Origin: a bacterium
GTDB taxonomy: Bacteria > Armatimonadota > JACIXR01
Assembly: GCA_014360495.1 (NCBI GenBank)
Contig: JACIXR010000007.1
Coordinates: 44,501 to 108,500 of the forward strand
Reading direction: 5' to 3'
DNA length: 64,000 bases
The notes beneath the pieces are model-generated. The model was not told where the DNA came from, did no database searches, and was given only the letters and a program-made list of their open reading frames with translations. Shown here one piece after another: positions 5,151-34,025 of this stretch. Position 1 is the stretch's first letter. Every line of letters starts with the position of its first letter. Made by a program: the position numbers and the translations under genes.

Positions 5151-5218
5151 TTATTAAAAGCGTCAAATACAAATTGCGTTTTTAAGTCACATCGTTCATC
5201 ATATTTTTGGTGATTAAA

Positions 5219-7282: not shown

Positions 7283-7339
7283 CCTTTTTCCCTTGCTTAA
7301 TTTTTTAAATCTGTTTTACTATTATTGGAGGTGATTAAA

Positions 7340-9570: not shown

Positions 9571-9590
9571 AATAAAGGAAAAAGGAGGCG

Positions 9591-10376: not shown

Positions 10377-10379
10377 AAG

Positions 10380-12142: not shown

Positions 12143-12173
12143 TATGTTAAACTTTTTTAGGAGAGTGATTTTT

Positions 12174-16351: not shown

Positions 16352-17482
16352 ATGACACCAAGGGAAAGATATAGGAGAACGCTTCTTTTCCAACAAGTTG
16401 ACAGGGTTCCCTTTCAGCCGGGCGGTCCAAGGGAATCAACCCTTAAAAGATGGCAGGAAGAAGGCTTGCCGAAGGATAGAAACTGGTTTGAATACCTCTG
16501 CGAGATATTGGGATTGGAGATTGAAAAAGCGAAAACCCCTTATGTGAGCCTGAGGATTTCCTTCGACCCCTGCCCTCCCTTTGAGGAGAAAATCATTGAA
16601 AGAAGGGGAAACCATCTGATAGTTCAGGATTACAAAGGGGCTATAGTGGAGATAGAGGATAAATACGATTTCTCTTATTTGAGATACGCTAAGGATTTTG
16701 TGACGAGGAAGTGGCATAAATTTCCCGTTGAGAAAGAAGAGGATTGGGATGAGATGAAGAAGAGGTTCAATCCCGATAGTCCGGAGAGGCTTGATGAGGA
16801 ATTGGAAGAGAAAGCGAAGATTTTGAGAGATAGAGACTGGGTTCTGACGATTAACATCCCTGGACCATTCTGGCAGATGAGGGATTGGTGTGGATTGGAG
16901 AACCTCTGCATATTTATGATTGAGAAGCCCAAATTCGTTCACGAGATGAGCGAGTTCTGGCGCAATTTCGTCTCAACTATCTTGAAGAGATATGTTGAGA
17001 AAATCCAGTTTGATTCGGTTATCATAAGCGAGGATATGGCGTATAAGGGAAAATCCATGATTTCCCCTCAAATGGTTAGGGAATTCTTATCTCCCTGCTG
17101 GCGGGAATGGAGCGAGATATTGCGGAAAAGCGGATGTGACATAATCATCCTGGATTCCGATGGCTATATCGCCGAGCTAATCCCTATTTGGATAGAAAAC
17201 GGGATAAATTGCACAATCCCCCTTGAGATAGCCGCGGGAAATGACCCCGTTGAGTTTAGAAAGAGATTTGGCAAGGGCATATCTTATATCGGAGGAATAG
17301 ATAAGAGAAAAATCGCAAAAGGAGGCAAGGATTTAAAAAAAGAGATGGAGAGGATAATACCATTTATGCTTAAGGATGGCGGCTATATCCCCTCCTGCGA
17401 CCATGGAGTGCCTCCCGATATATCCTGGCACACCTTCCTTGAATATTCCTATCTCCTCGCGAAATACACGGGCTGGCTCTGA
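16352..17482 (+). CDS. Uroporphyrinogen decarboxylase (URO-D)-family protein, non-canonical (possible methyltransferase-type member)
   Basis: 376 aa. N-terminal RERYRRTLLFQQVDRVPF resembles the URO-D family start, but the canonical HemE motif is not seen. Confidence 0.6.
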   Translation: MTPRERYRRTLLFQQVDRVPFQPGGPRESTLKRWQEEGLPKDRNWFEYLCEILGLEIEKAKTPYVSLRISFDPCPPFEEKIIERRGNHLIVQDYKGAIVEIEDKYDFSYLRYAKDFVTRKWHKFPVEKEEDWDEMKKRFNPDSPERLDEELEEKAKILRDRDWVLTINIPGPFWQMRDWCGLENLCIFMIEKPKFVHEMSEFWRNFVSTILKRYVEKIQFDSVIISEDMAYKGKSMISPQMVREFLSPCWREWSEILRKSGCDIIILDSDGYIAELIPIWIENGINCTIPLEIAAGNDPVEFRKRFGKGISYIGGIDKRKIAKGGKDLKKEMERIIPFMLKDGGYIPSCDHGVPPDISWHTFLEYSYLLAKYTGWL

Positions 17483-17490
17483 GGCGATTC

Positions 17491-20400
17491 CTACTTCAAT
17501 CTATAGGCGAAAACTTCACATCCGCAAGCGAGAATCGCCTCGTCTCCCTCCCAATTCAATGGATAACTCCTCAACACCTTCCCCTCCTCATCTATTTCCT
17601 CAACGCTTTCCGCCCTCTTCACTTGCCAGGGAAGGGCGTTCCAATTGATTCTCACATTGAATTGCTGACTATCGGGAAGGGGCACGAGGAGAAGTGCATC
17701 TCCTTCCTTCGTCAATCTGAAAGCCCCATTCGTCCTTATACCCTGAAAATCTATCATCTTGCCTTGCGGGTTCAATCTCGCCAAAACGGGGTCCTCTTTC
17801 TCCTCCAATGGCGCCCAGCTTATAGAAGTTATCTCGCTCCCGCTTCCCTCCAGCTTTATCTTACCAAGCCTTATTCGCCTCGTTCCATCATCAAATCCCT
17901 CCAAACTCGCCCTCTCTCCCGTCTTTGGATCCCACATCCCTACCCTAATCTCGAACTCCTCGCCAGCCTTGAACTTCTCGGGAATGGAAAATCTCGCCGA
18001 GCTCCTAATCTTTCCCTCCCATTGGGTCGTGGGAATGGGAGGCTTATGGTCCGCTTGGAACATTATCTCGCCAGCTTTATCAACGAAATGAACGAAGATA
18101 TGCATATCTTTGGGCATCGGCTTTCCCGCCTCCCAAAGTAGCGTAAGCTCCGCCTCCCTATTTCCCACATATCTCAAAGATTCCAAGCTCACCTTCACCG
18201 GTGACCTCCCGCTGACTGGGCGGGCATTTACGAACAACATTGAGGGAGAACGAGACCAATCAACAATCACTCCCTCTTTCCTCTCAATTGCCATTTCCAC
18301 AACCCCACCTTCAACCGGCACCCTCGCATAAACCCCATATTCGGGTAGGATATGCCCCTCTACCTCCCAATCCTGCTTTCCCCTGTTAACCCATACCTCC
18401 CCTCCGTTGTTCCATCTGACGAATTGCCTGTGAATATCGCCATTTACAAATTGGACATCCTCAATATCTTTCAAGGCAAGAGCTCTCATTAAATCATGGA
18501 GAAGCCAATATTTGCGAACGACATCCCTTCCGAAGGGAGCAGGAACCATAGCGGGATGTCCAGTGAGGACTTCGGTAGCGATGTAATCGTCGCTATAGAT
18601 TCCGTGCAAGCGAGAATCAAGACCCGCTACATAGCGCCCCTCATAGCCTGCGCCGTGAAGAGCGAACCTGCTGTGATGCGCCATATCATACCAGGGAATT
18701 CTCTCCGCATCCCTGCATCGTATCGGCCAAACAGCCCAGCCATAATAGCCTGGCGGAGGTATATCAACCCTCAAATGATTCGTCTGTCCGCCATCAAGCC
18801 AACCAATCAACTGGTCGTGTCCGCTCTCGGAGATTTGGGGAGCGGAATCGCCGAGAAAATCCCTTATCCATGCGAAAGCCTTCCCCCATACCTCTTTTGT
18901 GTATAGCCTCGTATAGAACTTACCATCGTGAGTCCAATAATCATAAGGACAAATAGAGGACCAAACATCTATGAAATAGGCTGTGGGAGCGAAGCCCTCC
19001 TTTATGAGCTTGAGATTCCTCTCCAAGAAGGGGAAAACCTGGTCCGCTCGCCAGCGATAGGATTGCGCCTTTCTCCCTTCATTGAACCAAGCAGGAACGG
19101 GATTGCCCTCGTGGGTGAAAGCTATCTTCTTATAGGAAAAACCCTCCGCATCGGGGTAGAAGTCAATGTAATTATCGTGAGGAGCGAAGAGAACACCATG
19201 GCTCTTACAGGTATCCACGAGATAGAGGAAATCTTCAAAGGTGCCTAAATTGGGATTGGGTGGATAGATATCGGGGAGGCGATAATCATATCCCCACCTC
19301 TGCCAATTGTGCCAGACGACGATTGAATCAGTCAATCCGTAGCGGAAAGCTCTCTTCAAAGCTTCAGCGCTATCCCTATACATCCCTCCCCATAAATCAA
19401 AGACAAAGCGTCCAGCGAGCTTGTTAACTCCTTCCGCAGGTTTCAATCCGTTTATCTCCCGCCAGAGTTTCGCTCCCCGCCAGGCGGTTTCCGCGGGGAT
19501 GAGAGAAATGACTTGATTATGGGGAGTGTGGAGGGTATAGACCTTTCGCTCTGGTGAAACTTCAAGATTGCTCGGGACCGCATCTACCCCCTCAACCAAA
19601 GATAGACCGTTTTTGAAATCTAAGCCGACGAATGAAGTTGATAGCTGATGCCCATCAAACCATAGATTGAAAGCCTTAGGCTCGACGATGACATTTCCTA
19701 CTCCAGCATAGATTTTCTCCGCCTCCTCGCTCCATTCCCCAAGGGAGATATCCTCAATGTAAACCACGAGCCAGGGGCGTGCGGAAGGCACATTCTCAAG
19801 CCAGAACTTAACCCGTAGGGCTCCATTCTCCATCCAGATATCCGTTAATAGGTCGTAATCCCCCAGCCAATTGGAGAATGAATGCCTATAAATCAAATGC
19901 CCATCCTTCTGAGTTTTCTTTACCCCTTTAAACGAACTCGCCGAGCGCCAATCGCTAACATCATCTCCTAAGACCCTTACCCTAAACCCATTGAATAAAA
20001 GGCTCTTGGAATCGCTTATGAAACCGATGACGGAGTCAAGGATTCCCTTCTTCCCCTCCCAAATCCTCACCTCATAACCTCTTCCACCTATCTCAATACT
20101 TCCCAACTTAAGATATTTAGCATCAAGGGGTGGAGGGAAAACAGCCCTTTGTGGCGGTGTGCCAACCAATAAAGTTGGCTCAGCCCAATAAGAATCGTCG
20201 CAGGTAGTATCCTTTTTCGGTCCGGGATGGGATTCCAGCTGAAGGCGAATCGCCTCTCCAGCGTATTCGCTCAAATCCACCTCTCCTTCATCCCAAACCT
20301 TCGCCGATGTATGTCTCTCATAGACAATCTTGCCCTCCTCTCCATCCGGTGCGGAGAAGGGAAGGACCCTGACCCTGAATGTTACCCCGTCGCTTGGAGG

Positions 20401-21168
20401 CTCAGTGGGGAGGTTATCCCTTATCGCATTTGCGAAGCGGAGAACAATCGGCTTGCCTTTAGGCAATTTGATGGGAAACTCAATCATTATAGTCCCGGCG
20501 AGATTATTGAACCAAGGCGGATGCATCCCAATTACTTCCCTTTCATCTCCCCTTCTCACACGCTCCCTAACTCTACAGCTCGCCCTCGTCCTTGGGTCGG
20601 TTCCTGCCATCCCAACAGGGGAAATCTGGGGTTTCTCCCCGAACACCCTCAAAATCACCCTGTAAACGGGAAGACGCCAAAGGGCGAGAGCGCTATCTCT
20701 CTTCACCTCAAATGGTTTCCAGGGAATATTTATTTTCGGTTTTGGCGGATTGGGGATATTAGTCCTCAATATGAGGATTGGATGCGCCTCATATTCTCTC
20801 CCCTCTACTTTAAAACGAACAAATGCGTGCACGGGATAATGAGCATTGTAGGTTTGGGGGGAAGGCGCGATTTTGAATTCAAGTTTAGCATTGCCCTTGG
20901 AAGATACACTGAAGGAAGCCCTTTTAGGCTCCGCCTTCCAATCATCTATCAATCCAATCTCCACATCCCCTTTTATCTCGTTCTCCCCTTTGTTCTCCAA
21001 TACAACAGAGACCGAAAAGGGTTTCTCAATAGTCGTCAGCTCGGATGGACCTTCAATCCTTGCCGTTATTGGACCCGCTGTATCAATCGGTGGGTCAAAA
21101 GCGGCAGCTTGCACAGCTAAAAGTAGCAAGCTTAAAAATGCAAATAAATAAACCTGCATTCCTATCAC
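17491..21168 (-). CDS. Giant secreted glycoside-hydrolase-like multidomain protein
   Basis: 1225 aa. Signal peptide MIGMQVYLFAFLSLLLLAVQAAA. Central TIM-barrel-like region rich in aromatics (WHNWQRWGYDY...FAPHDNYIDFYPD...YFIDVW). Confidence 0.5.
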   Translation of the reverse strand: MIGMQVYLFAFLSLLLLAVQAAAFDPPIDTAGPITARIEGPSELTTIEKPFSVSVVLENKGENEIKGDVEIGLIDDWKAEPKRASFSVSSKGNAKLEFKIAPSPQTYNAHYPVHAFVRFKVEGREYEAHPILILRTNIPNPPKPKINIPWKPFEVKRDSALALWRLPVYRVILRVFGEKPQISPVGMAGTDPRTRASCRVRERVRRGDEREVIGMHPPWFNNLAGTIMIEFPIKLPKGKPIVLRFANAIRDNLPTEPPSDGVTFRVRVLPFSAPDGEEGKIVYERHTSAKVWDEGEVDLSEYAGEAIRLQLESHPGPKKDTTCDDSYWAEPTLLVGTPPQRAVFPPPLDAKYLKLGSIEIGGRGYEVRIWEGKKGILDSVIGFISDSKSLLFNGFRVRVLGDDVSDWRSASSFKGVKKTQKDGHLIYRHSFSNWLGDYDLLTDIWMENGALRVKFWLENVPSARPWLVVYIEDISLGEWSEEAEKIYAGVGNVIVEPKAFNLWFDGHQLSTSFVGLDFKNGLSLVEGVDAVPSNLEVSPERKVYTLHTPHNQVISLIPAETAWRGAKLWREINGLKPAEGVNKLAGRFVFDLWGGMYRDSAEALKRAFRYGLTDSIVVWHNWQRWGYDYRLPDIYPPNPNLGTFEDFLYLVDTCKSHGVLFAPHDNYIDFYPDAEGFSYKKIAFTHEGNPVPAWFNEGRKAQSYRWRADQVFPFLERNLKLIKEGFAPTAYFIDVWSSICPYDYWTHDGKFYTRLYTKEVWGKAFAWIRDFLGDSAPQISESGHDQLIGWLDGGQTNHLRVDIPPPGYYGWAVWPIRCRDAERIPWYDMAHHSRFALHGAGYEGRYVAGLDSRLHGIYSDDYIATEVLTGHPAMVPAPFGRDVVRKYWLLHDLMRALALKDIEDVQFVNGDIHRQFVRWNNGGEVWVNRGKQDWEVEGHILPEYGVYARVPVEGGVVEMAIERKEGVIVDWSRSPSMLFVNARPVSGRSPVKVSLESLRYVGNREAELTLLWEAGKPMPKDMHIFVHFVDKAGEIMFQADHKPPIPTTQWEGKIRSSARFSIPEKFKAGEEFEIRVGMWDPKTGERASLEGFDDGTRRIRLGKIKLEGSGSEITSISWAPLEEKEDPVLARLNPQGKMIDFQGIRTNGAFRLTKEGDALLLVPLPDSQQFNVRINWNALPWQVKRAESVEEIDEEGKVLRSYPLNWEGDEAILACGCEVFAYRLK

Positions 21169-21207
21169 CTCTCTATCTCAATATTATAATCAATAAAGGA
21201 TATAACG

Positions 21208-23181
21208 CTATCCTTTTTTGAACTTCTCTCGCGCTTTCTCATAGCCTCCGGAATAGAGATATCTATGCCCCTCAAATAAAGCCTCAATTTCCCAAAATTC
21301 GTTTTGGGGATACCACCAGTGGTCGCCCTCAAAGGGTATCCTTATGTCCCTTATCGCCATCTCCTCGCCGTATCCCCATAATCTCAGCTCCATCTTCTCG
21401 CTCTTTAGGTTTAGCAGGGATACTTGTTGGCTTTTTGGATTCTCCCCATCAAAGTAAATCTCATCAGAACTCATTTTTCCGTTCTCCGTTTCCACAATCA
21501 CCTTATACCACCCGCTCTTGTCCATGGGATAATCAGCCTGGAAGTGAAAGGCTCTCACTGGATTGGGATGCCATACCCATCCCTCTTGATATTCGCCATC
21601 CATTTCCATGACGGGAAGCTTGCCAGAGGGAGTAAAATTTCCCCCTTCAGGACTGAATTCCCTCAAGATTTCCCCATCCCGCATAAGCAGAACCCTCTTC
21701 AATTTCCCAAGAGATGTGGTTATTATGATATGGGCATAGAATTGAGGACGGAGCTCACAAAGGCGGGTGAAATTTCCAATTTCCATGGCTATCAAGCTCG
21801 CTCTTGGATTTTGAGAGTTTGGCTTTGAGAAATAAATTGGGCTTGTTATCGCCCAATTCCCCCTTTCATCCTCAACCCTCGCGATATACCAAGCGCTTTC
21901 CCCTTCCTCAATATCAAAAATAAATGACGTCGTGTATTGAGAATATGATACGAATTCCGCCTCCTTTAAGAGGTCAGCGTAAATTCTCCCCTTCCTGATT
22001 ATCTCAACTGACTTCAAGGGATGAAGATGATGGATTTCCAACTTGCCTCTGTATTTATACTTCGCGCCGATTTCTATGACCTCGCCAACCTCTTTGCCCT
22101 CAATATTTAAGAAAGGGAAAATGGGACCGCCATTTGTTGCAAAGGTTCTCCCTTCGCGAATAGCATCAACAATTGATTTGTAATCCAACTTCCCTGCCTT
22201 AGCGTAAACCCTTCTCGCCCCCGGCGGTATTGTCTCTTTCCTCAAAAGGACCGCATCGGTGGAACCGCTGACCGCGACTTTATTCCCGAGATTCAGTATG
22301 GCGAACCAAATCAATTCCTCCGCTCTATTTGATATATCAAATGCATCGGCGCACTTGCCCAGAATCGCATCGCAAAGGCTCTCCGTTGCCCCCATCCAGT
22401 GAAGACGAGGAAGGGGCGATGTATGGGTGTAAATCACCGCTCCTCCAAGCTTGTGAACGATTTCGCAGAGATATTGAAAGGGAAGCACCGTTCGCCTCAT
22501 CTTGCTTAACTCCTCATTGGGGATGGGGTTCTCTATCCCTGGAGTGTTGGCGTGTCCGGTGAAGACGCCGGTGTGAATCTCGCTTGCGGAACGGAAAAGG
22601 AAATCTGCCCTGCTCAACTCCTCCTCAAATCCCCATTTCCCATCGGATTCCGTGATGTAATCCAAGCCCTCTGCCCTCGCTTGGAGGGCGGTGTAATGCT
22701 CGTCCACTTTTATATCTCCTGTAGGGTCGTGCCTAGTGTGAAGATGATTGTCCCCACAATACCATCCTTCTCTCTCGGGCGAAAACCATTTTTTCAGCTT
22801 AGCGCGAATCAGAATCTTCTCTCCTGCTTTAACGGATATCTTCATATCCAAGGGTAGATAATTTGGACCGCAGTAGATGTTTATTTCCGTTTCTCCCGGC
22901 GGTGATTCCAGGCTGAACTTCCCCTCAACATAAAATCTTCCATCCGAATAGAGCCCTCTTCCCACAACATCTATCTTTTTCCCATCGCTCGCCGTCGCTA
23001 TAACCCTTGCGGGAAGGGGAAAAAGCTTTTCTGTATCCAAAATCTCCACTTCTATTAACCCCTTATCCATCTTTTCAAATCCCTCTTTCCCCAGAACTTG
23101 AAATTCGCTTTTGGATGCTGAAACATCACCCATCCCCTTGAACTCAATAGAGAAGGCGAAAAAGAGGAAAATCAAGAACAT
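21208..23181 (-). CDS. CehA/McbA-like metallohydrolase (PHP-like domain), secreted
   Basis: 657 aa. Hydrophobic N-terminus; WYCGDNHLHTRHDPTGD metal-binding-like motif. Confidence 0.45.
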   Translation of the reverse strand: MFLIFLFFAFSIEFKGMGDVSASKSEFQVLGKEGFEKMDKGLIEVEILDTEKLFPLPARVIATASDGKKIDVVGRGLYSDGRFYVEGKFSLESPPGETEINIYCGPNYLPLDMKISVKAGEKILIRAKLKKWFSPEREGWYCGDNHLHTRHDPTGDIKVDEHYTALQARAEGLDYITESDGKWGFEEELSRADFLFRSASEIHTGVFTGHANTPGIENPIPNEELSKMRRTVLPFQYLCEIVHKLGGAVIYTHTSPLPRLHWMGATESLCDAILGKCADAFDISNRAEELIWFAILNLGNKVAVSGSTDAVLLRKETIPPGARRVYAKAGKLDYKSIVDAIREGRTFATNGGPIFPFLNIEGKEVGEVIEIGAKYKYRGKLEIHHLHPLKSVEIIRKGRIYADLLKEAEFVSYSQYTTSFIFDIEEGESAWYIARVEDERGNWAITSPIYFSKPNSQNPRASLIAMEIGNFTRLCELRPQFYAHIIITTSLGKLKRVLLMRDGEILREFSPEGGNFTPSGKLPVMEMDGEYQEGWVWHPNPVRAFHFQADYPMDKSGWYKVIVETENGKMSSDEIYFDGENPKSQQVSLLNLKSEKMELRLWGYGEEMAIRDIRIPFEGDHWWYPQNEFWEIEALFEGHRYLYSGGYEKAREKFKKG

Positions 23182-23184
23182 CGC

Positions 23185-24606
23185 TCAACGGAAGCGTAGG
23201 GAATAGATATCCGCATCAAGCATTACGAATCTCAACCTGATGATTTTACCCTCCAGTGAGCTCAAATCCTTCCTTCCCTTCCACCGCACAACGCCCTCTA
23301 TCTCGTCGCCATATATCGTTTCGCAATCCTTAAGGGAGAAACCGGGTATAGGCTCGCCTCTCTCGATTAGGATTTCCACAAGGATTTTGCCTCCCGCCGA
23401 TGTTGAGTAGTTAAGAACAAGCTCCTTACCCTTGAATTTTAACGGATGGGTGATAAATTCTCCCCCGGGATAGGAAGCGTGGACTGAAACGAAGCCATCC
23501 ATTCTAAGGGTGAAGCGCCTGAGACAATTTCCCTCTTGAGAATATCCCTCGCTGGAGTAAATAGAGAGCTCGTCGGGGGCATTGGCAAGCTTTGATTTCG
23601 TCACCAATATTCCCCAGGCGGTCATATTGTTCCGATTAACCCACCGCTGGGGTTGAGGTCCAGGGCGAATGAAAGCTTCAAGCCATCTATGCCAGTGAAT
23701 TCCATCCCTACTCGTCATAAAGACCCCATCTGATAACCCTCCGGGAATCTGCTTCTGACGCTCGGGGAAAAATCTCTTGGGAAAACCGAGGTAAATGTGG
23801 GGAGCGCGGAAATAGGGAATGATTGCGTTTGTATAAAGATGCTCTTTTGGAACGGAACCGTAATCAAGAAATTGTGGCTCGCTCCAATTGAGAAAATCCT
23901 GGGAGGTAGCAACCATTATGTCCCTATAGCCCTCGCGAAATGCCCTGTAATATGCGACATAACATTTCTTCACTTCGTCCCAAAAAGCAAGATTTTGGGA
24001 ATCAAAGGCACCCTTCATTAAGACGGGTTCATTTTTCATCAGCCTCCAATGGATTCCATCGGGAGATTGGAAAGCATAAAGTCCTCCCTCGCCCAATCCC
24101 AGAGCCTTATAACGAGCCTCAGGAGGGCAATTGGGGGTTTTATCCTTGAAAGGAGTGAAATTGTGGGTGCCTATTCCCTGCCAAACGATGTTGTTTTTCT
24201 TTGACCCGTTGAACTCAAACAAACCTAACTCGGGTTTAACCCAGTGAATTCCATCTTTGCTTTCAGCATAACAGGTGAACTCGGGATGCTTTTTCTTAGA
24301 AGTCTCCGGGTCATGGGAAGAACCTCTATAATACATGCGAAAAATGCCATCATCTTCAAATACGGTTACATATGCTGAGGTATTTCCTTCCCAGGGCTTA
24401 TCAAAGATTATGGCGACCTCCTGAGGTATTGGATGGTGTAGTTTGAGGGAGACTCCTTCCATCTTAGCTATGAGCCAATCGTCAACGAAGAGCTCCAAAT
24501 TTGAGCCTATATCTCTTACCGGTTCCTCATCTTGAGGCTTAGTAGCTCCCGCTAAGGAAAGGAACCAAAAGCAAGCAAGCATTATACTTTTTAAGGCATA
24601 TCCCAT
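23185..24606 (-). CDS. Secreted beta-propeller glycoside-hydrolase-like protein (GH43/GH117-like fold suspected)
   Basis: 473 aa. Signal peptide MGYALKSIMLACFWFLSLAGA. Repeated W/Y-rich blade-like segments (GIFRMYYRG, DGIHWRLM, DGIHWHRW). Confidence 0.45.
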   Translation of the reverse strand: MGYALKSIMLACFWFLSLAGATKPQDEEPVRDIGSNLELFVDDWLIAKMEGVSLKLHHPIPQEVAIIFDKPWEGNTSAYVTVFEDDGIFRMYYRGSSHDPETSKKKHPEFTCYAESKDGIHWVKPELGLFEFNGSKKNNIVWQGIGTHNFTPFKDKTPNCPPEARYKALGLGEGGLYAFQSPDGIHWRLMKNEPVLMKGAFDSQNLAFWDEVKKCYVAYYRAFREGYRDIMVATSQDFLNWSEPQFLDYGSVPKEHLYTNAIIPYFRAPHIYLGFPKRFFPERQKQIPGGLSDGVFMTSRDGIHWHRWLEAFIRPGPQPQRWVNRNNMTAWGILVTKSKLANAPDELSIYSSEGYSQEGNCLRRFTLRMDGFVSVHASYPGGEFITHPLKFKGKELVLNYSTSAGGKILVEILIERGEPIPGFSLKDCETIYGDEIEGVVRWKGRKDLSSLEGKIIRLRFVMLDADIYSLRFR

Positions 24607-24695
24607 ATTTGATATATATTATATCATAAATGAAAATAGGGGGGCTCCCCTTAAGGGGAGCCCCCTATTTTCTGATTTAAAGCGGGATAAACTCT

Positions 24696-25421
24696 CTACA
24701 TTCCATAATCCTCAGCATTTCTGCATAGAGGGTCTATGTAGATATTAGTATTACGATTTCCACTTGCGTCCATCTGCCCATCCCAATCGGGAACCTGCTC
24801 CCGCTTGAACGACTTCACATGCCCATCCACAAAGGCAATGTTAGCGGTATCGTTATGGCGAAAAGCAACCAAATGCCTCTGGTGGTCAGGCTCTTCCGGC
24901 AATGTTTGCCCACCCCAACAACAGCCATTCCTTTGAGAAATGGGATGCCATACCACATGGCATTCGCCAAACATCAATACTTTGGATGGTTGTGCGATTG
25001 AGGCAAGCGATACACCATGCGGGAACCAAAAATCCGGACCCAAGCATTTGTTCCAACCATAGCTCCAATCTTGCAATTCTAAAGGTGGCTGACCCTTGCT
25101 GGGGCATATCATAATCGCCTCGTTCTTAATGTAAGGGTAAATCCCTGCGTGCCGGTAGAGATATTGAACCGCCCAGCAACCAGGAGTTGGAGAACCACAA
25201 TAAGCGTCAGCTGTTAGGAAGAAATGCTCGTCCCAATCCTGAGCATACATCAACGCAGCGGTTGCCAGGTTCCTCATATTGCTCATACATTGGCTCTTCC
25301 TAGCCATCTCTCTCGCCCTTGAGAAAACCGGAAACAGAATGGCGGCGAGAATTGCTATGATAGCTATAACCACTAGTAATTCAATTAAGGTAAAACCTCT
25401 CTTTTTACTTTTCTTTATCAC
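24696..25421 (-). CDS. DUF1559 (H-X9-DG) protein with prepilin-type N-terminal cleavage/methylation domain
   Basis: 241 aa. [32 protein letters not shown]... and C-terminal [13 protein letters not shown] (H-X9-DG). Confidence 0.88.
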
Positions 25422-26013
25422 TTTCTATAACACCTCCTTTTTATTCTTTATTGCCCCCAATCTTCAGTTTCTCCGGTCTTTCCGGCGAGGGAGAAGCAGG
25501 GGCAAAGGCTCCTCCCTCCTTTCTAAACACTTGCTTGGCACCACCCCTTTTCATCTACGCTCATAAAAGAAGGGGGTCCAAGCCTATCTGATACTCGGAC
25601 CTCCCTTAAAACCTTTGAGGAAAGAACAAAGATATCAGAAAGCGAGTTCTCTCCCCTTCTTAGAAGGGTTCTTCTTCTCCAATTTTTAAAAATATCCATA
25701 AACATTTTTTCATCTACTAAAGTATAGGTACCTCTTTCTTTATCCCGGATATATCTATAAATATCTTACAACACGAAAACACCCTACGCAACTTTTTTAA
25801 TATTTGGGCTTTTTAAATAAAGCAATTTTGAACTTGTATGCTAACTATTAATTCCTCACCTCGTTATTTTTTCTTTTAAAATGCTATCAAAGGATAAAAG
25901 AATAGCCCGATTTGTTATAATTGATTCTTTAAATAACCTTTTAAAGGCAAGGTAGAAGTTCTTGGCGATCCCCTTTTTCTAACCCACTTCCGCTTTAGGA
26001 AACAAACTTCAAA

Positions 26014-26937
26014 TCATTTACCCTTCCCTATAATCTCAAAAAGGGTAATCTCAGGGCGGGAGCAGAAGCGAAGGGGTAGCCCTTCAGTTCCTATGCCGCG
26101 ATTCACATACAAAAGCGTCTCCCCAACCCTATACAGTCCCCTCTCATATTTTTTCCCATATTTTGAAAATGTCAACACTGCGCCATAAAACGGGATAGCA
26201 ACTTGACCGCCATGCGTATGTCCAGCGAGATAAAGGTCTATATCGTAAGCATTTAAATCCTCAATCAAATCGGGATAATGAAAGAGTAGAATAGTGAAAT
26301 CGCCACGAGCTCTCATAGCAAGGGCTTGGAGCAAAGCCGAATCATCGTTCACATCCAATCCCGCTATGTAAATATTATTGCCCGAAATGGAAATCCTTTC
26401 CCCTTCCCCCATCAGCATTTTAACTTTTAATCCCTTGAAAATGTCAACATTGGACGCAACCCCCGCATCCCAATTTCCCCTAACAGCATATATTCCGTAT
26501 TTTACTTTTAGCTCTCCAACCATCTTTCTAACCGCATCAAGAGCCTCTATTTTATTTATATAATCGCCGGTTAGGCATATTATATCGGGATTGAGAGCAT
26601 TCACAATTGAGGGAAGCCTCCTCTCATTCTTGTTCCATCCCTTGCTATGGATATCGGAAAGCTGAACAATGACTATTTTTGAACCAGTTTTGAGCTTCGG
26701 AGTTTCAATCCTAATTCTGCTCACATCTATCCAATATGGCTCAACGAAATAAGCATATAGGAGGCTTAGGATGAGAAGGGAAAATAAAAAGGTGAAAATC
26801 CAGCGAAGCCAGGGATTGGCAAATTGGCTCTCCTGCCTTTTCCCAATCCAAGCCCACAAAACCGCTATCTCAACCCCTATTATCGTGAGAACTCCGAACA
26901 AAACCAGGAAAAGCCTTATCCTCTCCTCAACTGACAA
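26014..26937 (-). CDS. Membrane-anchored metallophosphoesterase (calcineurin-like)
   Basis: 307 aa. Three N-terminal TM-like helices; motifs LSDIHS, GDYIN, GNWD and GHTHGGQ. Confidence 0.8.
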   Translation of the reverse strand: MSVEERIRLFLVLFGVLTIIGVEIAVLWAWIGKRQESQFANPWLRWIFTFLFSLLILSLLYAYFVEPYWIDVSRIRIETPKLKTGSKIVIVQLSDIHSKGWNKNERRLPSIVNALNPDIICLTGDYINKIEALDAVRKMVGELKVKYGIYAVRGNWDAGVASNVDIFKGLKVKMLMGEGERISISGNNIYIAGLDVNDDSALLQALAMRARGDFTILLFHYPDLIEDLNAYDIDLYLAGHTHGGQVAIPFYGAVLTFSKYGKKYERGLYRVGETLLYVNRGIGTEGLPLRFCSRPEITLFEIIGKGK

Positions 26938-26949
26938 ACCAGTTCTCCA

Positions 26950-29900
26950 TCATTCAAGTTTCATCAATTTATCCAGATAATTCCTTGCCTTTTTTAAATC
27001 GTCGCTTAGGAGAACGAGGGAGAATCTCTCAGCGGGAGAAATCTCTACCGCTATCTTACCTTCTTTCTGGCTTATTCTGGGAGAGGAAATCTTCCTCCAA
27101 TTCCCTTTCTCCACCTCCCCACTCTCGCCAATCAGTTTCGTCTCATCCCTTCGCAAAATCTCCACTTTCCCCTCCTCCAAGGGGATGAACAGAAGAGCGG
27201 AGGAGGAATCAATTCCCTTCCCATCAAGGGAGATAAGGATGAAATGCCCCTCGCCATTGACGATTTCCCTCCCCTTGATTTTAACCTTTCCTTGCCCTTC
27301 CACAGCGAGAGGTTCACCCTTTGATGATAAATGGATGAATCCCGTTGAACGCTCGGATAGCTCCATCTCCACTCCTTCCCATTTGTAACTTCCCGCTTTC
27401 CCATAGTTCACTAGGGTCAAAGTCCTCCCACCCTCAAGCGTAGGGATGGAAAAGGCAAGAAGCTCGGGATTCTCGGGCTCAACGGCTAAGCCCTCTATTT
27501 TTGCCATCCGCAAAACATCTTTATAAAGTCCATAAACCTCCCCCTTCATCTCCACAGGTTCCTCCACATAAAATATCTCCCCCTTCCCCAATCTAATTCT
27601 TGTAATGCCATTTTCTTCCTCCCCCTCAATCCCTTTAAGCCTTTCACCTTTCGCCTTCTTGAAGTTCTCATCTCTATCAATCTCTCCGCTAATGTAAAGC
27701 TTCCCTCCACCGCGAACGAAATCCATCAGGATGGTAAACACTTTATCGGAGATGGCGTAGGGGGAAGGATAGAGGATAAGTTCCGCATCTTTTAAGAGAG
27801 GGAGTTTGTCCTCGGTTATAATCTCAAAATCCACTTTCAATTGGAGAAGCGCCTTTATAGCTCTGCGGAAGGCATCGTGAAAGCGCATCCTCTGGCCTGA
27901 GAAAAATCCGATTTGAGGAGTGAGGAGATAAACTTTGGGCTTCTGGTATTTCGGCTGAATTGAACCGAAGAGAAGCGCCATAGCGCGCATAATATAGCCT
28001 GCCTGGCGAGGGGAGCGGTCGGCGTGAACGAGACCACAGGGGAAGATTCCCTCCATAGGGTCTCGCCAATGCCAACTGTTGAGGAAAGAAGCTCCTTCCC
28101 CAAACGCTATATGAGTTAAAAAGAGAAAGCGACGATTATATTCGTTGGTCGGCTCGTGTCCATATCCCTCAAAACCGGGATGGTTTTTTGCTCCGCACTC
28201 TCCAACGCTCAGCGGCTTCCCTAGCCACTGCATATCTATTTCCTTTAATTCCAGAGGGAAAACCGTTAAATCGCCATAGTAGTGGCGGTTGGTATAATCC
28301 ATATCCTCAGAGAGCAAAATCGGGTCGTGGATGACATCTCCCCAGCCAAATCCCTGCAAACAGCCAACTGTTATGAGAAGCCAAGGGTCGGATTTCTTCA
28401 TCGCTTCATAAAGCCTATCATACCAATTCTTCTCCCAGCGAAGATAGAATTCCGCTGTATCCCTTGCCCTCACATCGTTAACATCGGATGAGAGGGATTT
28501 TACCGCTATCTCCTCAAAGCTCTTTTCCTCCAATTTATCTCCCCACACCTCTTTCAATTTTTCAAAACTTCCATACTTTTCCCTCAGATATCTTTGAAAC
28601 TCCATTCTATGCTGGGGTGAATCCTCCCTCCGCAGAGAGGGTTCATTGCAGAGGTCAATGGTTATAAGCTTGACCCTCTTATACCTCTCAGCTATCTCCC
28701 GTGCGGTTTTCTCCTCTTCCTCCAAAGCGTTCCTATCAAGGGAGTTCCAGAGGTTAGGAGAAGCGAAGAAAATTATGTTGTGCTTTTGGGCGAGATAGAC
28801 AAGAGCGTCATTAGCCCTCTTTGCCCTCTCTGTTTCCCTCTGAGTGAAAGGCCAGAAGACACGGGATATGTGGAAGCCCCAGTCCTCCATTAGCTGGAAA
28901 TCCCTTTCCCAAGCAAGCGGAGAACAGGCGGTCACGCTATCAATCTGCCCCCACCACTCCTGTGCCCCCACTATGAATTTTGGCTTACCGCCGAAAAATA
29001 AATATGAATCTTTTATAAGCGGTCTTTTGCCCTTCATAAGATTTTCCTGCCAAATGACGAAAGCGTCCTCCATTTCGTCTATCTTGTTCCCATTCTCCCA
29101 AAGCTCGCATCCAAGATAACAGAAATCCCTCTTTTCCTCTTTGGAAATGGGATATTCTTGGGATATCTGCCTGATTTCTCCACTCTTAACCTCCACATCC
29201 ATTTCCCTCACCCATTCTTCTTTTCCTTCCTCAAACCCCAATTTAAATCTCACCCTGAATTTCCCATCATTTCTTCCCATATTCGCTATCCAAACTCTCA
29301 AATTAGCCGTTTCACCCGGACGATAACAAGCCCATTCCGTTCCCGCTCCATATAGATAAGTCTTCTTTATCAAGCTCTCCGCTAAACGAGGGAGGTAGGG
29401 AAGAAGGGCGTCCTTTGTGAACAGATTCTTGTTGTCCACACCGAATATAGCCCAGCTTGAGCCCTTATAATAGCCATCGTAGTTATGGATTATGCTGGCA
29501 AGATATCCCCTGAAGCGTCCCTGGGAATCAAAGGCATAAAGGAGCGGTAGAATGCGAGCGACATTGGGACCGAAGCCGTGCCCCGCTCCCTTGCCAATTG
29601 GTCCCACAGCAGCGAAGCCAGTGAATGGTCCCTTTAAAGCGAAATCGCTAGGGATAATCATCTGCAGGGAAGCTGGTTTAGCTAAATCGGCGTTCTCAAG
29701 GGGATGGGAAGGGTCGAAAACCCCTATCTGCTCGGGATTTGGCCACATCGCATCCTGAAGCCTTCCAAAGCGGGTGTTAATTACCTCCTGAAAGAGGATT
29801 TCCTCACCCCTCAAATCTGCTAAAATATTTATGTCCTTTATAAAAAATTTGTAAGCTTTCCCCTCTTGTTCGGTCTCCACGGAGATGCCGAAGGAAAGAT

Positions 29901-31305
29901 GGTCGGCATTCTCCGGGCGGAAATGGTCCCCCGCTATACCTCTTCCCACTGAGGGATTATCTGGCCAGTATTGAAGGTCGGCTATTGATATGTAATATTC
30001 CTTCCATTCTGATGTAAGCTCAACCCCAGAGCGCCAGCGAGAGCCATCCTTTTCCTGCCACTCAAAAAACAGCTTTTTAACCCCTTCTCCCTTCGCCTTG
30101 AAATTAGCGATTATGAAATTTGAAGGAAAGGCAGAAGGATTGACCGGTGGTGAGGAAATCGTCACCCAACCCCTCAAATCATCCACATCTACTTCCAAGA
30201 AGTTCTCGCCCTCTTCATCTTTATCCAATTTGAAGGAGGCTTCTCCCGCTGGGAAGCCCAAAGTCCATTTCTCATCTTGTGATAGGGAGAAAAGGGGATG
30301 TTTTTCCCCCTTGGGGATGGGGAGTTTTTCCTTCTCATACCAATTGCCGTCAACGAAGAATAGGGGCTTATCAAAGGCATATCCTCCAATAGTTATCATA
30401 CTTCCGCCCTCGCTCAAGAACTGCCTCACTGCTTGGGTTGCCTTGGCGGGGAAGTATGGACCATAGGGGAGGATTAAGAGGTCGAAATTTTTGGCGGAGA
30501 GAAGCGAGGGGTTTGAAAGCTCCTCAGCACCAAGAAGATAGGGGGAAAAGCCAGCCTCTTTTAAAGAGGAATATAATTCTTCAATGGAGGGAGTTCCATC
30601 AGTTTTGGGGAAATTAATTTCAGAAAAAATCGCTACATCCTTACCGATTTCCCTTTTAGATTTTATCCTCTCCATAAACTCACTCCCTTTCTCTTCCATT
30701 TTCCTAAGCTTTTCGCTGATTTCCTCATCGTAGATTGAAGGCGAATACTCACTCGCTTCATCTCCCATCTCCAATTGAACATCGTCAAACCAAGCGGTGC
30801 CATAGCCGTGAATCAGAAGGATAACCGCCACCTTGTTCGCTCCTCTGGGAACCACCGCCGTCGTCTCTATCCGTTCCCAGTCGCTATCTCCAATAATTTT
30901 CTTCTCGCTATCCTTATAGGAAATCCTTGTATCACCTGAGAAGAAACTGATTGAGCAATAAGCCCCTACTCCACCTCCTACGCCACTCGTCTTAACGAAG
31001 GCACTGAAGGTCAAATGCTGATTTGAGGCACGAATGGGAAATTCCTGATAGGCTGAATACCAACCAAGGGGCGCATCCTTAGGGATGGAAATGCGAAGTG
31101 AAAATCTTCCCGAGTGAAAAACGCTTGCATCAGTAACCGCTTCGCCGTTAGATGGTAGATTGAAACGCCAATTAGTGGGAGGAACTCCTTTTAGAGGGAA
31201 TTCAAAGCTTGAGTTAGGGAGCAGATTCAATGGCAAGCAATGAAACGAAGCAACAACCAACAATAGGGCAATAAACCCAAAATTTGCCCTCATCAACCTC
31301 GCCAT
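26950..31305 (-). CDS. Giant secreted glycoside hydrolase (clan GH-A catalytic domain) with N-terminal CBM4/9-like module
   Basis: 1451 aa. Signal peptide; N-terminal CBM-like ...FSGRFSLRI...AWFDDVQLE. GH42-like DLLILPYGPYF...GGSMITIGG. Clan GH-A NEP motif (IDLCNEPS). Confidence 0.6.
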   Translation of the reverse strand: MARLMRANFGFIALLLVVASFHCLPLNLLPNSSFEFPLKGVPPTNWRFNLPSNGEAVTDASVFHSGRFSLRISIPKDAPLGWYSAYQEFPIRASNQHLTFSAFVKTSGVGGGVGAYCSISFFSGDTRISYKDSEKKIIGDSDWERIETTAVVPRGANKVAVILLIHGYGTAWFDDVQLEMGDEASEYSPSIYDEEISEKLRKMEEKGSEFMERIKSKREIGKDVAIFSEINFPKTDGTPSIEELYSSLKEAGFSPYLLGAEELSNPSLLSAKNFDLLILPYGPYFPAKATQAVRQFLSEGGSMITIGGYAFDKPLFFVDGNWYEKEKLPIPKGEKHPLFSLSQDEKWTLGFPAGEASFKLDKDEEGENFLEVDVDDLRGWVTISSPPVNPSAFPSNFIIANFKAKGEGVKKLFFEWQEKDGSRWRSGVELTSEWKEYYISIADLQYWPDNPSVGRGIAGDHFRPENADHLSFGISVETEQEGKAYKFFIKDINILADLRGEEILFQEVINTRFGRLQDAMWPNPEQIGVFDPSHPLENADLAKPASLQMIIPSDFALKGPFTGFAAVGPIGKGAGHGFGPNVARILPLLYAFDSQGRFRGYLASIIHNYDGYYKGSSWAIFGVDNKNLFTKDALLPYLPRLAESLIKKTYLYGAGTEWACYRPGETANLRVWIANMGRNDGKFRVRFKLGFEEGKEEWVREMDVEVKSGEIRQISQEYPISKEEKRDFCYLGCELWENGNKIDEMEDAFVIWQENLMKGKRPLIKDSYLFFGGKPKFIVGAQEWWGQIDSVTACSPLAWERDFQLMEDWGFHISRVFWPFTQRETERAKRANDALVYLAQKHNIIFFASPNLWNSLDRNALEEEEKTAREIAERYKRVKLITIDLCNEPSLRREDSPQHRMEFQRYLREKYGSFEKLKEVWGDKLEEKSFEEIAVKSLSSDVNDVRARDTAEFYLRWEKNWYDRLYEAMKKSDPWLLITVGCLQGFGWGDVIHDPILLSEDMDYTNRHYYGDLTVFPLELKEIDMQWLGKPLSVGECGAKNHPGFEGYGHEPTNEYNRRFLFLTHIAFGEGASFLNSWHWRDPMEGIFPCGLVHADRSPRQAGYIMRAMALLFGSIQPKYQKPKVYLLTPQIGFFSGQRMRFHDAFRRAIKALLQLKVDFEIITEDKLPLLKDAELILYPSPYAISDKVFTILMDFVRGGGKLYISGEIDRDENFKKAKGERLKGIEGEEENGITRIRLGKGEIFYVEEPVEMKGEVYGLYKDVLRMAKIEGLAVEPENPELLAFSIPTLEGGRTLTLVNYGKAGSYKWEGVEMELSERSTGFIHLSSKGEPLAVEGQGKVKIKGREIVNGEGHFILISLDGKGIDSSSALLFIPLEEGKVEILRRDETKLIGESGEVEKGNWRKISSPRISQKEGKIAVEISPAERFSLVLLSDDLKKARNYLDKLMKLE

Positions 31306-31334
31306 TCCTTACTGGCTAGCTCAAGAACGATATT

Positions 31335-31580
31335 CTATACTCCCTTTGAGATGATGAGCATGAGGGCTTTGTAGAGCCCGAAGCCGAAGAAGAGGAGCCC
31401 GAAACCCATTAAGATGATAGGTAGAACGATGCTGGGAGCGGTTACACGACTGCGAGGGAAGCCGTATACTTGCACGCGCAATATCAAAATCAAAACCAAG
31501 AGCACAAGACCTAGCGCCAATATCGTGAAACCTTGTGCAGCTATGATAAAAGCCTGTAGATAATTCATGTGGTTAAACAC
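31335..31580 (-). CDS. Small two-TM membrane protein, hypothetical
   Basis: 81 aa with two hydrophobic helices, sitting between GH genes on the same strand. Confidence 0.4.
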   Translation of the reverse strand: MFNHMNYLQAFIIAAQGFTILALGLVLLVLILILRVQVYGFPRSRVTAPSIVLPIILMGFGLLFFGFGLYKALMLIISKGV

Positions 31581-31652
31581 CCCTTTCGGGTAATTTCTGA
31601 ATCTATTTTACAACAAATGATAAATCAAGCAAGAAAAATTTCACTTTGTATA

Positions 31653-34025
31653 TCATTTCGCTTCCTTCAACTTTAAAACTGTAAGGGAATAAGGAGGCAG
31701 GCTGATTGTAAATCTATTGCTAACTCCCTCTATAATCTTGCTTATCGGTGCAACACGCCTCGGCTGGGAGAAGCTGTTCTCCTCATCGGGGGAATTGCCC
31801 GTGAGGATTACCATTTCCCCTTGCTTCTCCAGCCTCCCGCCGTTGAGTTCGAGCTCGCCGTTCTGCCACTTATCGCTCGTGTTCACTATTTTGATGAAGA
31901 CCTTCCCGCTATTTGTATCTTTTGTGGCGGAAGCAAGGACAGGAGAAGGCATTCTCTCCTCTATCTCGTGTATTAGCTTGCCATCCAGATAGCAACTTAT
32001 CTTATTGCCCTTTATCTCTATTTTGATGTCATACCATCGCCCAGTTTCCACGCTTCCCTCCACCGTCTCGCTGACAATGCTCTTGCCTCCACCCACACAT
32101 CTCTCTATCGCATGGCGGGTATTCCCCCAACCACCTATATTCCACCAATACCAGTTGTTATCATCCTTCACAGCGAACATAATGAGGAATCCCTCAGCAC
32201 CACCCAACTTCCTCGCCTTTAGGCTTATCGTATAATCGCTCCAATTGACATCTCCATAAACAATTCTTACATCCGTTTCAAGGGATTTCTGTTGGAGAGA
32301 ATAATCCCTCACTTCCCAATCGCCGCGCACGACCCTCCATCCTTCCAATCCCTTTGAGAAATCTGCTCCAAATATCAATTTATCCTCTTTATACACCTTC
32401 AAATCCTTGAATTCCGCTTGGGTAAGCCAAGTTCCCAAGCCAATTGCTCCCTTTAGAACGGGCTTCTCATCCTCCATTCGCACCTCAACGGGAAGAACAA
32501 CATCTCCCCTATTTTCGCTGAACAACATCTGAACATAATAGGAGGGAGTGCCGTAGACATTCGCGTTATCAAAACAGATTAAGTCAGGATTCCATCTTCT
32601 GTCGTTCACATTGACGAAAAGGGGAGCATAAGAAGCCATGATAACAATATCGCTGTTTCTCTCCAATCCAGTCATAAAGGCAGCCTCGCCTATGGCTGCC
32701 CTCAAATTCCCCGTCCCGCAGTTTTGGGTTACCGCATACTCTCCGACGAAAATGCTCGGTCCATTGCGGTCGTATTTATCATAACGAGTGGAATTAGCTA
32801 TGAACCACTCAGGGGAATTATAATAATGCTCATCAACGATTTCCATAGGAGCGCTTTTAACTGGCACATTCGCGATTAAAGTCAATTTAGGATACTTCTC
32901 TTTTATGGCTTTATAAAATAAAGCATATCTTTCCTCATAAGCTGGTCCCCAATTCTCGTTTCCGATTTCAACGAAGCGTAGCTTGAAGGGATGGGGATGC
33001 CCGTTCTTCTCCCGTAGAGCCCCCCATTTGCTCGTGGTCGGACCTATGGCATATTCAATAGCCGCAAGGGCATCCTCAATCCATTCATCCATCTTCTCAA
33101 GGGGAGCAATTTCCTGATGGGACATCCCACAATTGACAGCGAGTATCGGCTCCGCTCCCAGCGCCTCGCATAAAAGCAGATATTCGTGAAGCCCGAGCCC
33201 CTCCGTCGTCCTATAACCCCAGAGATTCCATCTTCCCGGTCTTTCCGCTATATCCCCGATGGTATTCCGCCAGCGTAACGCATGGTCAAGCCGCTCTCCC
33301 TCAACGAAACAACCGCCAGGAAATCTGACGAAGGACGGCTTCAAATCCGCAAGCATCTGCATAAGGTCGGAACGAAAGGGCAGACCCTTCCACCTATCCC
33401 TTGGCATAAGGGAAACTACATCCAGCCAGAGAGTTCCCAGAGAAGTCAAATAAATGACCAGGCGTGCGGAAGGGAAGGAATCCTCAGCGTGAAGGACAAC
33501 CTGAAACTTCTTCCAACTTGAATCAATCCCCTGAATGCGGGACTGAGCGTAGACTATTCCGCTTGGATGTTCCAAACTTACAAGTATATCGCCCCTATAA
33601 TTCCCATTACAGCGAGCATAAAGGGATAAATCGTAGAGCTTCCCTTTTTCTATCTTTATTCCCCAAAAGCCGGAGTTCGCAACACCTAGCCGTCCTCTCC
33701 CCAATTTTTTAACCGAAATCTTTAAGGAGCGAGGATTAGAGGGATTAAGGGGATGAGAGGAATCAACGGATATTTCTCCTTCTGCTTCCCCCTCCTGAAC
33801 TATATACCAACCAATCGGGGCATCTCCTTCTTCAAAATCCCTGTTTCTCACCAATTCAGCATAGAGCCCACCTTCCCCTGCGTGATTGATCTCCTCAAAG
33901 AAGATACCCCAGAGAAGAGGGCTCACTTTATGCAGCGGTTTCTGTATATCAACCGAGATAACCGCTTCTCCTGCGAAAAGGGATAAGCCGATTATCAGCA
34001 GGAATATAAAGACAAGCTCTCCCAT
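31653..34025 (-). CDS. Alpha-L-arabinofuranosidase, GH51 family, with extra C-terminal domain
   Basis: 790 aa. GH51 N-terminal signature LWGIFFEEINHAGEGGLYAELVRNRDFEE; VRFPGGCFVEG; catalytic-region EIGNENWG. Confidence 0.85.
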   Translation of the reverse strand: MGELVFIFLLIIGLSLFAGEAVISVDIQKPLHKVSPLLWGIFFEEINHAGEGGLYAELVRNRDFEEGDAPIGWYIVQEGEAEGEISVDSSHPLNPSNPRSLKISVKKLGRGRLGVANSGFWGIKIEKGKLYDLSLYARCNGNYRGDILVSLEHPSGIVYAQSRIQGIDSSWKKFQVVLHAEDSFPSARLVIYLTSLGTLWLDVVSLMPRDRWKGLPFRSDLMQMLADLKPSFVRFPGGCFVEGERLDHALRWRNTIGDIAERPGRWNLWGYRTTEGLGLHEYLLLCEALGAEPILAVNCGMSHQEIAPLEKMDEWIEDALAAIEYAIGPTTSKWGALREKNGHPHPFKLRFVEIGNENWGPAYEERYALFYKAIKEKYPKLTLIANVPVKSAPMEIVDEHYYNSPEWFIANSTRYDKYDRNGPSIFVGEYAVTQNCGTGNLRAAIGEAAFMTGLERNSDIVIMASYAPLFVNVNDRRWNPDLICFDNANVYGTPSYYVQMLFSENRGDVVLPVEVRMEDEKPVLKGAIGLGTWLTQAEFKDLKVYKEDKLIFGADFSKGLEGWRVVRGDWEVRDYSLQQKSLETDVRIVYGDVNWSDYTISLKARKLGGAEGFLIMFAVKDDNNWYWWNIGGWGNTRHAIERCVGGGKSIVSETVEGSVETGRWYDIKIEIKGNKISCYLDGKLIHEIEERMPSPVLASATKDTNSGKVFIKIVNTSDKWQNGELELNGGRLEKQGEMVILTGNSPDEENSFSQPRRVAPISKIIEGVSNRFTISLPPYSLTVLKLKEAK

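Follow-up and report, generated by a model that had tools for sequence, protein, structure and literature searches.

Sus-like polysaccharide utilisation loci (PULs) have a SusC/SusD pair as their defining feature; together with the PULs of Gram-positive bacteria and the carbohydrate-active enzyme (CAZyme) gene clusters catalogued by dbCAN, they are the described systems closest to the locus considered here. We analysed a 64,000-nucleotide stretch of a contig (JACIXR010000007.1, positions 44,501 to 108,500; hereafter the window) from a metagenome-assembled genome (MAG) of the Armatimonadota, in which eight minus-strand genes, designated A to H, occupy positions 17491-34025. Like the described systems, the array places genes for predicted exported glycoside hydrolases (GHs) and carbohydrate-binding modules (CBMs) on one strand with short gaps. 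Unlike them, it has no SusC/SusD pair, ATP-binding cassette (ABC) or major facilitator superfamily (MFS) transporter, and no hybrid two-component, extracytoplasmic function (ECF) or LacI-type regulator; moreover, its composition shifts between close relatives, and at least one member, D, has no evident role in glycan breakdown.

Searches with Pfam and NCBIfam found no transporter (SusC/SusD, ABC or MFS), sensor or regulator in the eight genes or their flanks, and no TonB-dependent receptor or SusD in the eight genes and most of the larger open reading frames (ORFs) of the window. Some 15 kb, with housekeeping genes in between, separate the array from the nearest solute-binding protein gene (49094-50389). 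Because the defining SusC/SusD feature was looked for and not found, the array is not a Sus-like PUL. A sequence-only reading of this DNA had likened it to a PUL outside the Bacteroidetes; the clustering of co-directional, apparently exported enzymes with GH folds agrees with that description, whereas the missing transporter, sensor and regulator and the unconserved gene order do not. We judge it fairly probable that the region is a lineage-specific mosaic island of exported glycan-active enzyme genes, made up of about four units, and not one co-evolved pathway.

Array layout and gene order in relatives

The ORF table of positions 17491-34025 gave eight ORFs whose sizes and order agree with the earlier listing of an approximately 16.5-kb co-directional array, every boundary included:

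A, 31653-34025, minus strand: 790 aa, predicted exported GH51 alpha-L-arabinofuranosidase
B, 31335-31580, minus strand: 81 aa, small protein with two hydrophobic segments
C, 26950-31305, minus strand: 1451 aa, CBM4-like, clan GH-A, GH42-like multidomain putative enzyme
D, 26014-26937, minus strand: 307 aa, membrane metallophosphoesterase (YaeI/LpxG-like)
Non-coding gap between D and E, 25422-26013, minus strand: 592 bp
E, 24696-25421, minus strand: 241 aa, DUF1559/HX9DG prepilin-like protein
GC-rich hairpin between E and F, 24639-24666, minus strand: from the terminator scan
F, 23185-24606, minus strand: 473 aa, modelled five-bladed beta-propeller with C-terminal beta-sandwich
G, 21208-23181, minus strand: 657 aa (or 641 aa), CehA/McbA-type PHP-domain metallohydrolase
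H, 17491-21168, minus strand: 1225 aa, DUF5696 protein with a modelled GH101/GH129-type barrel

The intergenic gaps measured 72 bp (A/B), 29 bp (B/C), 12 bp (C/D), 592 bp (D/E; put at about 590 bp in the earlier reading), 89 bp (E/F), 3 bp (F/G) and 39 bp (G/H), and GC content was even across the window (0.43-0.50).

We then compared gene order around the homologues. For the conserved-operon test, all window proteins were searched in the surroundings of H homologues (80 genome loci) and of G homologues (80 metagenome loci), the metagenome scan for G being made with an 8-sequence alignment; neighbour clustering covered 80 loci for H, from genomes, and 34 for G, from metagenomes. The most recurrent neighbours of H were a GH123-like protein and a sulfatase (7/80 loci each), and that of G was an oxidoreductase (5/34 loci). 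No conserved partners were found around H or G homologues, and a conserved operon was accordingly rejected. The closest relatives differed from the window, and from each other, in the following ways (percentages are protein identities, with the protein compared in brackets where it was a single one):

L006, 79% (H): H next to E, after which the URO-D-like and GH123-like genes come as they do in the window; neither F nor G present
L001/L004, 75% (H): H in reversed orientation, converging with GH51-CobO-RNR-PolX; B to G all missing from the 10 kb on either side
L091, 72% (C): B-C directly followed by F
L094, 86-90%: C-D-E-F-G kept, followed by an unrelated ORF in place of H
L121, 82-87%: D, then F, then G; no E

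The ORF that replaces H in L094 carries a PPAVVKEGDIVMDCGANTG motif and looks methyltransferase-like by eye. Adjacency of F and G did not extend beyond relatives with at least 82% identity, and their treatment as a conserved functional pair was likewise rejected. The variable island lies between a conserved block of CobO, ribonucleotide reductase (RNR), PolX, valyl-tRNA synthetase (ValRS) and Lon genes on one side and the URO-D-like and GH123-like genes on the other, with units gained, lost and inverted within it. Since these units come, go and are re-ordered independently, the array resembles a toolbox rather than one co-evolved pathway.

The spacing, the 592-bp gap and a conserved hairpin after E together suggest about four transcription units, namely A, B-C-D, E and F-G-H. 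The gap consists of an AT-rich upstream part and then a long leader before E, as read from its sequence, and is likely the promoter region of the E unit; a regulatory RNA was rejected there, as neither an Rfam family nor a tRNA was found in it. The hairpin (24639-24666) has a stem of 11-12 bp, the longest in the terminator scan, with a TTAA loop and a short T-run after it. Four relatives keep it behind E, one base pair of the stem having changed in a compensatory manner from C-G to G-C, and it is present whichever gene comes after E, including in L006, where H replaces F; E and the hairpin therefore behave as a cassette of their own, of which the hairpin is probably the terminator or an RNA-stabilising element. 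Counts of promoter and terminator consensus sequences in the scanned region equalled the shuffled-sequence expectation.

Five window proteins (G, A, RNR, ValRS and Lon) match accessions within MBC7330117-129 of a public MAG at NCBI, where the Prokaryotic Genome Annotation Pipeline (PGAP) had already named G 'CehA/McbA family metallohydrolase' and A 'alpha-N-arabinofuranosidase'. F-G-H is present on contigs from four independent sequencing runs, two of which also hold the full E gene, and on the longest such contig (L084) the genes E to H match the window at 100% identity, as do the URO-D-like and GH123-like genes that flank them; the assembly of the E-H part is therefore sound. The N-terminus of G is ambiguous, as gene calls on identical Logan contigs start 16 codons later (641 aa) than that of PGAP (657 aa), and the start of H is also uncertain, Logan contig gene calls beginning 3 codons later (1222 aa), so that an exact search for the 1225-aa product gave no match. 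These alternative start codons (given at 21133-21181 and 21159-21168 for G and H) bear on whether G carries a signal peptide. A, C, F and H each begin with a hydrophobic, signal-peptide-like segment, judged by hydrophobicity of the translated sequence. Each enzyme would be exported by a Sec-type signal and would work on its own, either in the periplasm or extracellularly.

Families and folds of the encoded proteins

The sequence-only reading had named, in gene order, a GH51 arabinofuranosidase, a small protein with two transmembrane segments, a 1451-aa CBM plus GH-A hydrolase, a membrane metallophosphoesterase, a DUF1559 pilin-like protein, a beta-propeller GH-like protein, a CehA-like metallohydrolase and a 1225-aa GH-like protein. 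Pfam, NCBIfam, PDB and structure searches bore out or sharpened each of these family guesses, and the large proteins did not turn out to be devoid of GH or CBM domains, as C and H both carry glycoside-hydrolase folds.

H scored just over the cut-off of Pfam DUF5696 (26.9 bits versus 25.6). Its AlphaFold2 model (predicted local distance difference test score, pLDDT, 88.9) shows N-terminal beta-sandwich domains, a GH101/GH129-type (beta/alpha)8 barrel at about residues 560-900 and C-terminal beta domains. All top Foldseek matches of this model were GH101 (3ecq, EngBF) or GH129 (5wzr, 5opq) structures with E values of about 1e-20, and the target-normalised template modelling score reached 0.69 (5wzr 0.68; 5opq 0.62). 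In searches of the PDB, the GH129 enzyme NagBb was matched by the single sequence at 2.1e-5 and by the family profile at 1.5e-9, over a 118-residue stretch only. Within H, a FIDVW segment with the invariant D734 aligned opposite the nucleophile region of NagBb (the nucleophile itself we take to be Asp435), and E781, in ISESGHDQ, is invariant about 47 residues after D734. By its modelled fold and its candidate catalytic Asp and Glu, H appears to be of the GH101/GH129 type; it is not a sequence-family member of either, as no GH101 sequence match was obtained with it and the GH129 match is partial.

H thus resembles GH129 (the alpha-N-acetylgalactosaminidase NagBb and the 3,6-anhydro-D-galactosidase ZgGH129) and the GH101 endo-alpha-N-acetylgalactosaminidases in its barrel-plus-sandwich fold and in the invariant Asp and Glu, but its identity to these enzymes is 10-16%, it has about 550 extra N-terminal and about 300 extra C-terminal residues, and it belongs to DUF5696, a family found mostly in Planctomycetota, Hydrogenedentota and Acidobacteriota and without a characterised member. 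Homologues at 569 loci were found in species-representative genomes, and identity of at least 50% over all of the approximately 1225 residues is kept across Planctomycetota, Hydrogenedentota, Acidobacteriota and others. A literature search for DUF5696 or PF18952 found no papers. H may be a retaining alpha-glycosidase of GH101/GH129 type.

The AlphaFold model of F (pLDDT 90.9) is a five-bladed beta-propeller with a C-terminal sandwich, and its fold is closest to GH130 and GH43, at 16% identity or less. Pfam gave no match at E <=0.01, the GH130 and GH43 models included; the only NCBIfam match was a 60-residue GH130-like one (3e-7, 30 bits versus a cut-off of 450), and the family profile searched against the PDB gave 0.009. 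The model thus places F with GH130 in fold, and with the other five-bladed propeller families GH43, GH137, GH159 and GH117, from which it is set apart by the missing Pfam GH130/GH43 match and the identity of at most 16%. Typical GH130 phosphorylases are also cytoplasmic, whereas F is predicted to be exported. Going by the GH130/GH43 superfold, F could be a hydrolase that works with inversion; a deacetylase is the less likely option.

The F family comprises at least 8000 homologue clusters, the best 120 of them at 59% identity or more, and no Pfam domain was found among the 120 members listed. The family is spread over many bacterial phyla, Armatimonadota, Poribacteria and Latescibacteria among them, and reaches at least one archaeon, as seen from contigs with TFIIB, RadA and primase genes. 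On these archaeal contigs (L088-L090, region 8001-11204) a 64%-identical homologue adjoins a GH67N/DUF4838 protein, and its presence there suggests that the F family has moved between domains of life.

A matched Pfam ASD1_dom (1.7e-47) and Alpha-L-AF_C (5.3e-33), both far above the cut-offs, as well as CBM_4_9 (9e-7) and 3keto-disac_hyd (7e-8). Against the PDB it aligned with MgGH51 (6zps, 1.3e-102), the VEIGNE (GNE) and GEYA catalytic motifs included. Its N-terminus is CBM4_9-like, the catalytic domain is a (beta/alpha)8 barrel and the C-terminus forms a sandwich, so that the acid/base Glu in GNE, the nucleophile Glu, the barrel and the sandwich that mark GH51 are all present. A is therefore alike to the ASD1/MgGH51 type almost end to end, N-terminal CBM4_9-like domain included, and differs from it by an additional lectin domain of DUF1080/CBM66-like kind that interrupts the sandwich at about residues 555-690 (match to the levanase CBM66 4b1l at 1e-4, residues 556-689). 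This strong homology argues for an exo-alpha-L-arabinofuranosidase that would take off terminal alpha-L-arabinofuranose. In the paper on Fervidibacter sacchari, a degrader that may be related, GH51 receives no more than a brief mention.

C is composed of a CBM4-like jelly-roll (about residues 25-180), a GATase1-like domain (about 250-310), a GH-A TIM barrel (about 760-1100) and GH42M-like plus C-terminal domains (about 1150-1390). Pfam Glyco_hydro_42 matched at 6.5e-7 (29.5 bits versus a cut-off of 21), covering only model positions 111-240 of 376, and GH42M at 1.6e-4 (21.7 bits), below its cut-off of 25.8; among the 28 family members, GH42M was detected in 12 at E <=0.01. The family profile matched GH42 beta-galactosidases in the PDB at 2.5e-18 in two stretches, one being part of the barrel and the other the trimerisation-like and C-terminal domains. 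CBM-like PDB matches cover residues 7-180, and CBM_4_9 was detected in 12/28 members. The acid/base motif NEP (E888) is present in 25/28 members and the nucleophile motif GE[C/F/Y]G (E1036) is invariant, so that C, with an Asn-Glu acid/base and a nucleophile Glu in a predicted TIM barrel, reads as a member of clan GH-A.

C shares with GH42 beta-galactosidases the order of domains, from a TIM barrel through GH42M (GATase1-like) to a C-terminal domain, as well as the acid/base NE and the nucleophile Glu. In contrast to them, it is twice as long, about 750 N-terminal residues being made up of CBM, GATase1-like and other domains; its NEP and GECG motifs are closer to GH5; its Pfam match spans only one third of the GH42 model; and it is apparently exported and of a very rare family (57 matches among 5.8 billion sequences). 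C might act as a retaining beta-glycosidase of clan GH-A held on its polymer by the CBM, with a substrate that would be beta-galactoside-like at best.

The 81-aa protein B has two hydrophobic stretches and no Pfam or NCBIfam match, and its gene ends 29 bp upstream of C. Its homologue in L091 is 78% identical and again lies directly upstream of the C homologue; this conservation in another genome indicates that B is a real gene linked to C. D, 12 bp downstream of C, combines N-terminal hydrophobic segments with a Pfam Metallophos domain (8.6e-13). Its NCBIfam matches to LpxG (1.8e-35, 122.8 bits versus a cut-off of 350) and YaeI (5.7e-30, 104.7 bits versus 188) both score under the curated cut-offs, which leaves general Metallophos membership only. 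D comes after C in L094 (87% identity) and does not in L091, and it is probably unrelated to glycan breakdown.

E matched Pfam N_methyl (1e-10, 41.1 bits versus a cut-off of 21.2) and SBP_bac_10/DUF1559 (4.2e-6, 27.4 bits versus 23.3), and in NCBIfam both TIGR02532 and the HX9DG model TIGR04294 (23.5 bits versus 19) scored above their cut-offs. With its class III signal (N_methyl), DUF1559 domain and C-terminal HX9DG, it has every feature of a prepilin-like protein. E may be a DUF1559-type pseudopilin that accompanies the exported enzymes, with a possible role in secretion or substrate capture.

G, 3 bp downstream of F, scored well above the cut-off of NCBIfam NF038032 (3.1e-37, 128.7 bits versus 80). 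Its homologues fall into 1704 representative clusters, about 15 of them full-length; among full-length homologues H148, H151, E201, H210, H253 and D309 are invariant and H146 is nearly so, which makes these residues candidate metal ligands. No PDB relative was found by single sequence or by profile. CehA and McbA are hydrolases of carbaryl, a carbamate pesticide. G shares with them the domain and the conserved candidate ligands, and differs by its extra N- and C-terminal domains, its probable export and its place among glycosidases. Its family membership makes G a candidate esterase or phosphoesterase that would remove an ester-type substituent.

Substrate of the island

The sequence-only reading had proposed arabinan, arabinoxylan or pectin side chains as the target. 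GH51 does point to arabinose; it is, however, the only gene that does, while the characterised kin of H act on alpha-linked N-acetylgalactosamine (GalNAc) or anhydro-galactose and the likeness of C is to beta-galactosidases. A coordinated PUL-like locus that jointly dismantles arabinan, arabinoxylan or pectic side chains (rhamnogalacturonan I or arabinogalactan) would account for the secure GH51 identity of A, for the likeness of C to GH42 beta-galactosidases and the match of its N-terminus to the N-terminal part of the arabinogalactan endo-beta-1,4-galactanase 9fli, and for a divergent neighbour in which FG-GAP repeats are joined to a PL11 rhamnogalacturonan-lyase C-terminal domain. It would also fit some H homologues elsewhere that lie near GH127 and GH106 genes, one lineage of G homologues in which an RHGA-like beta-helix protein comes next, and the tight, co-directional spacing of the eight genes. 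We nevertheless regard such a locus as unlikely: it would have no transporter, sensor or regulator of its own, its order already changes between relatives at 72-90% identity, those structural relatives of H that are characterised have alpha-GalNAc or 3,6-anhydro-D-galactose and not pectin as their substrates, D is a YaeI/LpxG-like membrane phosphoesterase with no evident glycan role, and a plant-glycan source for the related metagenome contigs is assumed, the one pointer to a habitat being the GTDB lineage JACIXR01, loosely indicated by a neighbouring accession prefix and recorded from a Shengli oilfield environment (45-46% GC).

It is quite improbable that the island is directed at microbial or animal-type glycans with alpha-galacto-configured, substituted sugars (exopolysaccharides, S-layer or O-glycans, sulfated or phosphorylated galactans) and that GH51 is an unrelated neighbour: H shares its fold with GH101/GH129 members that cleave alpha-GalNAc, Gal-beta-1,3-GalNAc-alpha or alpha-3,6-anhydro-D-galactose, its homologues lie beside GH123-like genes and sulfatases (7 loci each), a GH123_N protein gene is convergent on H in the window, and G (PHP) and D (metallophosphoesterase) could strip ester substituents, but the GH123-like and sulfatase associations occur in at most 9% of the H loci, the 10-16% identity of H to characterised enzymes makes specificity not transferable, no sulfatase was found in the window, and the GH123-like neighbours elsewhere are of another subfamily than the window gene.

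A single common substrate for the array is thus not supported, and the mosaic island of independently gained and lost units remains the reading we prefer. Several observations weigh against it. Only 29 and 12 bp separate the genes of B-C-D, and 3 and 39 bp those of F-G-H, which together with the shared direction of all eight genes fits longer read-through transcripts, and the weak T-run means that the hairpin after E might attenuate instead of terminate. C-D-E-F-G is kept in the relative at 86-90% identity, so some of the order persists at least for a time, and the divergent FG-GAP/RGL11_C gene together with GH51 would fit a pectin side-chain theme.

Neighbouring genes and the two uncharacterised families

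Beside the array lies a conserved housekeeping block of CobO, class II RNR, PolX, ValRS and Lon. Divergent from GH51, a plus-strand gene (34165-35553) encodes the FG-GAP repeat protein with the PL11 rhamnogalacturonan-lyase C-terminal domain (RGL11_C); this gene is absent in the relative at 75% identity, where GH51 abuts CobO. At the other end, a stand-alone URO-D / MtaA-CmuA-like gene (16352-17482, plus strand) is convergent on H with 8 bp between the ORFs; CobO and the B12-dependent RNR are nearby. URO-D-like genes also flank H homologues in 4/80 genome loci (L006, L032, L067 and L083), in records labelled Planctomycetota and Armatimonadota among others.

Further plus-strand CAZyme-like genes at 5207-15965 are interrupted by housekeeping genes. 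They are a 691-aa protein without a family (5207-7282), a DUF2961 protein (7325-8827, 2e-84), a family which we take to be that of the GH172 fold, and a 1322-aa CBM9/GH123_N/GHL6 protein (11997-15965) convergent on H. Two plus-strand genes stand at 51497-54631. The first matches MtaB, the methanol:corrinoid methyltransferase (4e-196 in Pfam; in NCBIfam 648 bits, slightly below the equivalog cut-off of 720), and in the second a URO-D domain of MtaA type is fused to B12-binding domains of MtaC type. By their domains, MtaB and the fusion gene appear to form a methanol or methyl-corrinoid system, in a non-methanogen MAG with many glycan-degrading enzymes. At 54660-58949 on the minus strand, a 1074-aa protein without a Pfam or NCBIfam family is encoded directly downstream of a zf-HC2 anti-sigma-like gene.

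Many degraders of the PVC group, Armatimonadota-like bacteria and other non-Bacteroidota carry CAZyme genes in loose, fluid clusters without transporters. As such clusters are common outside the Bacteroidota, listing this array as a defined PUL for arabinan or pectin would be unwarranted. The locus itself is ordinary, a loose CAZyme gene island in a public and already annotated MAG, and its interest lies in F and H: it points to two large, highly conserved and uncharacterised families, the F propeller, for which there is no Pfam model, and the GH101/GH129-like DUF5696, and confident structure models, together with candidate catalytic residues for H, are at hand for biochemistry. It is conceivable, though less likely than not, that F and H are founders of two uncharacterised GH families with new specificities, and that the pilin-plus-hairpin cassette is a mobile 'front end' placed before different exported enzymes. 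If this holds, F would represent a GH130-related exported propeller family, and H would be the third family of the GH101/GH129 fold.

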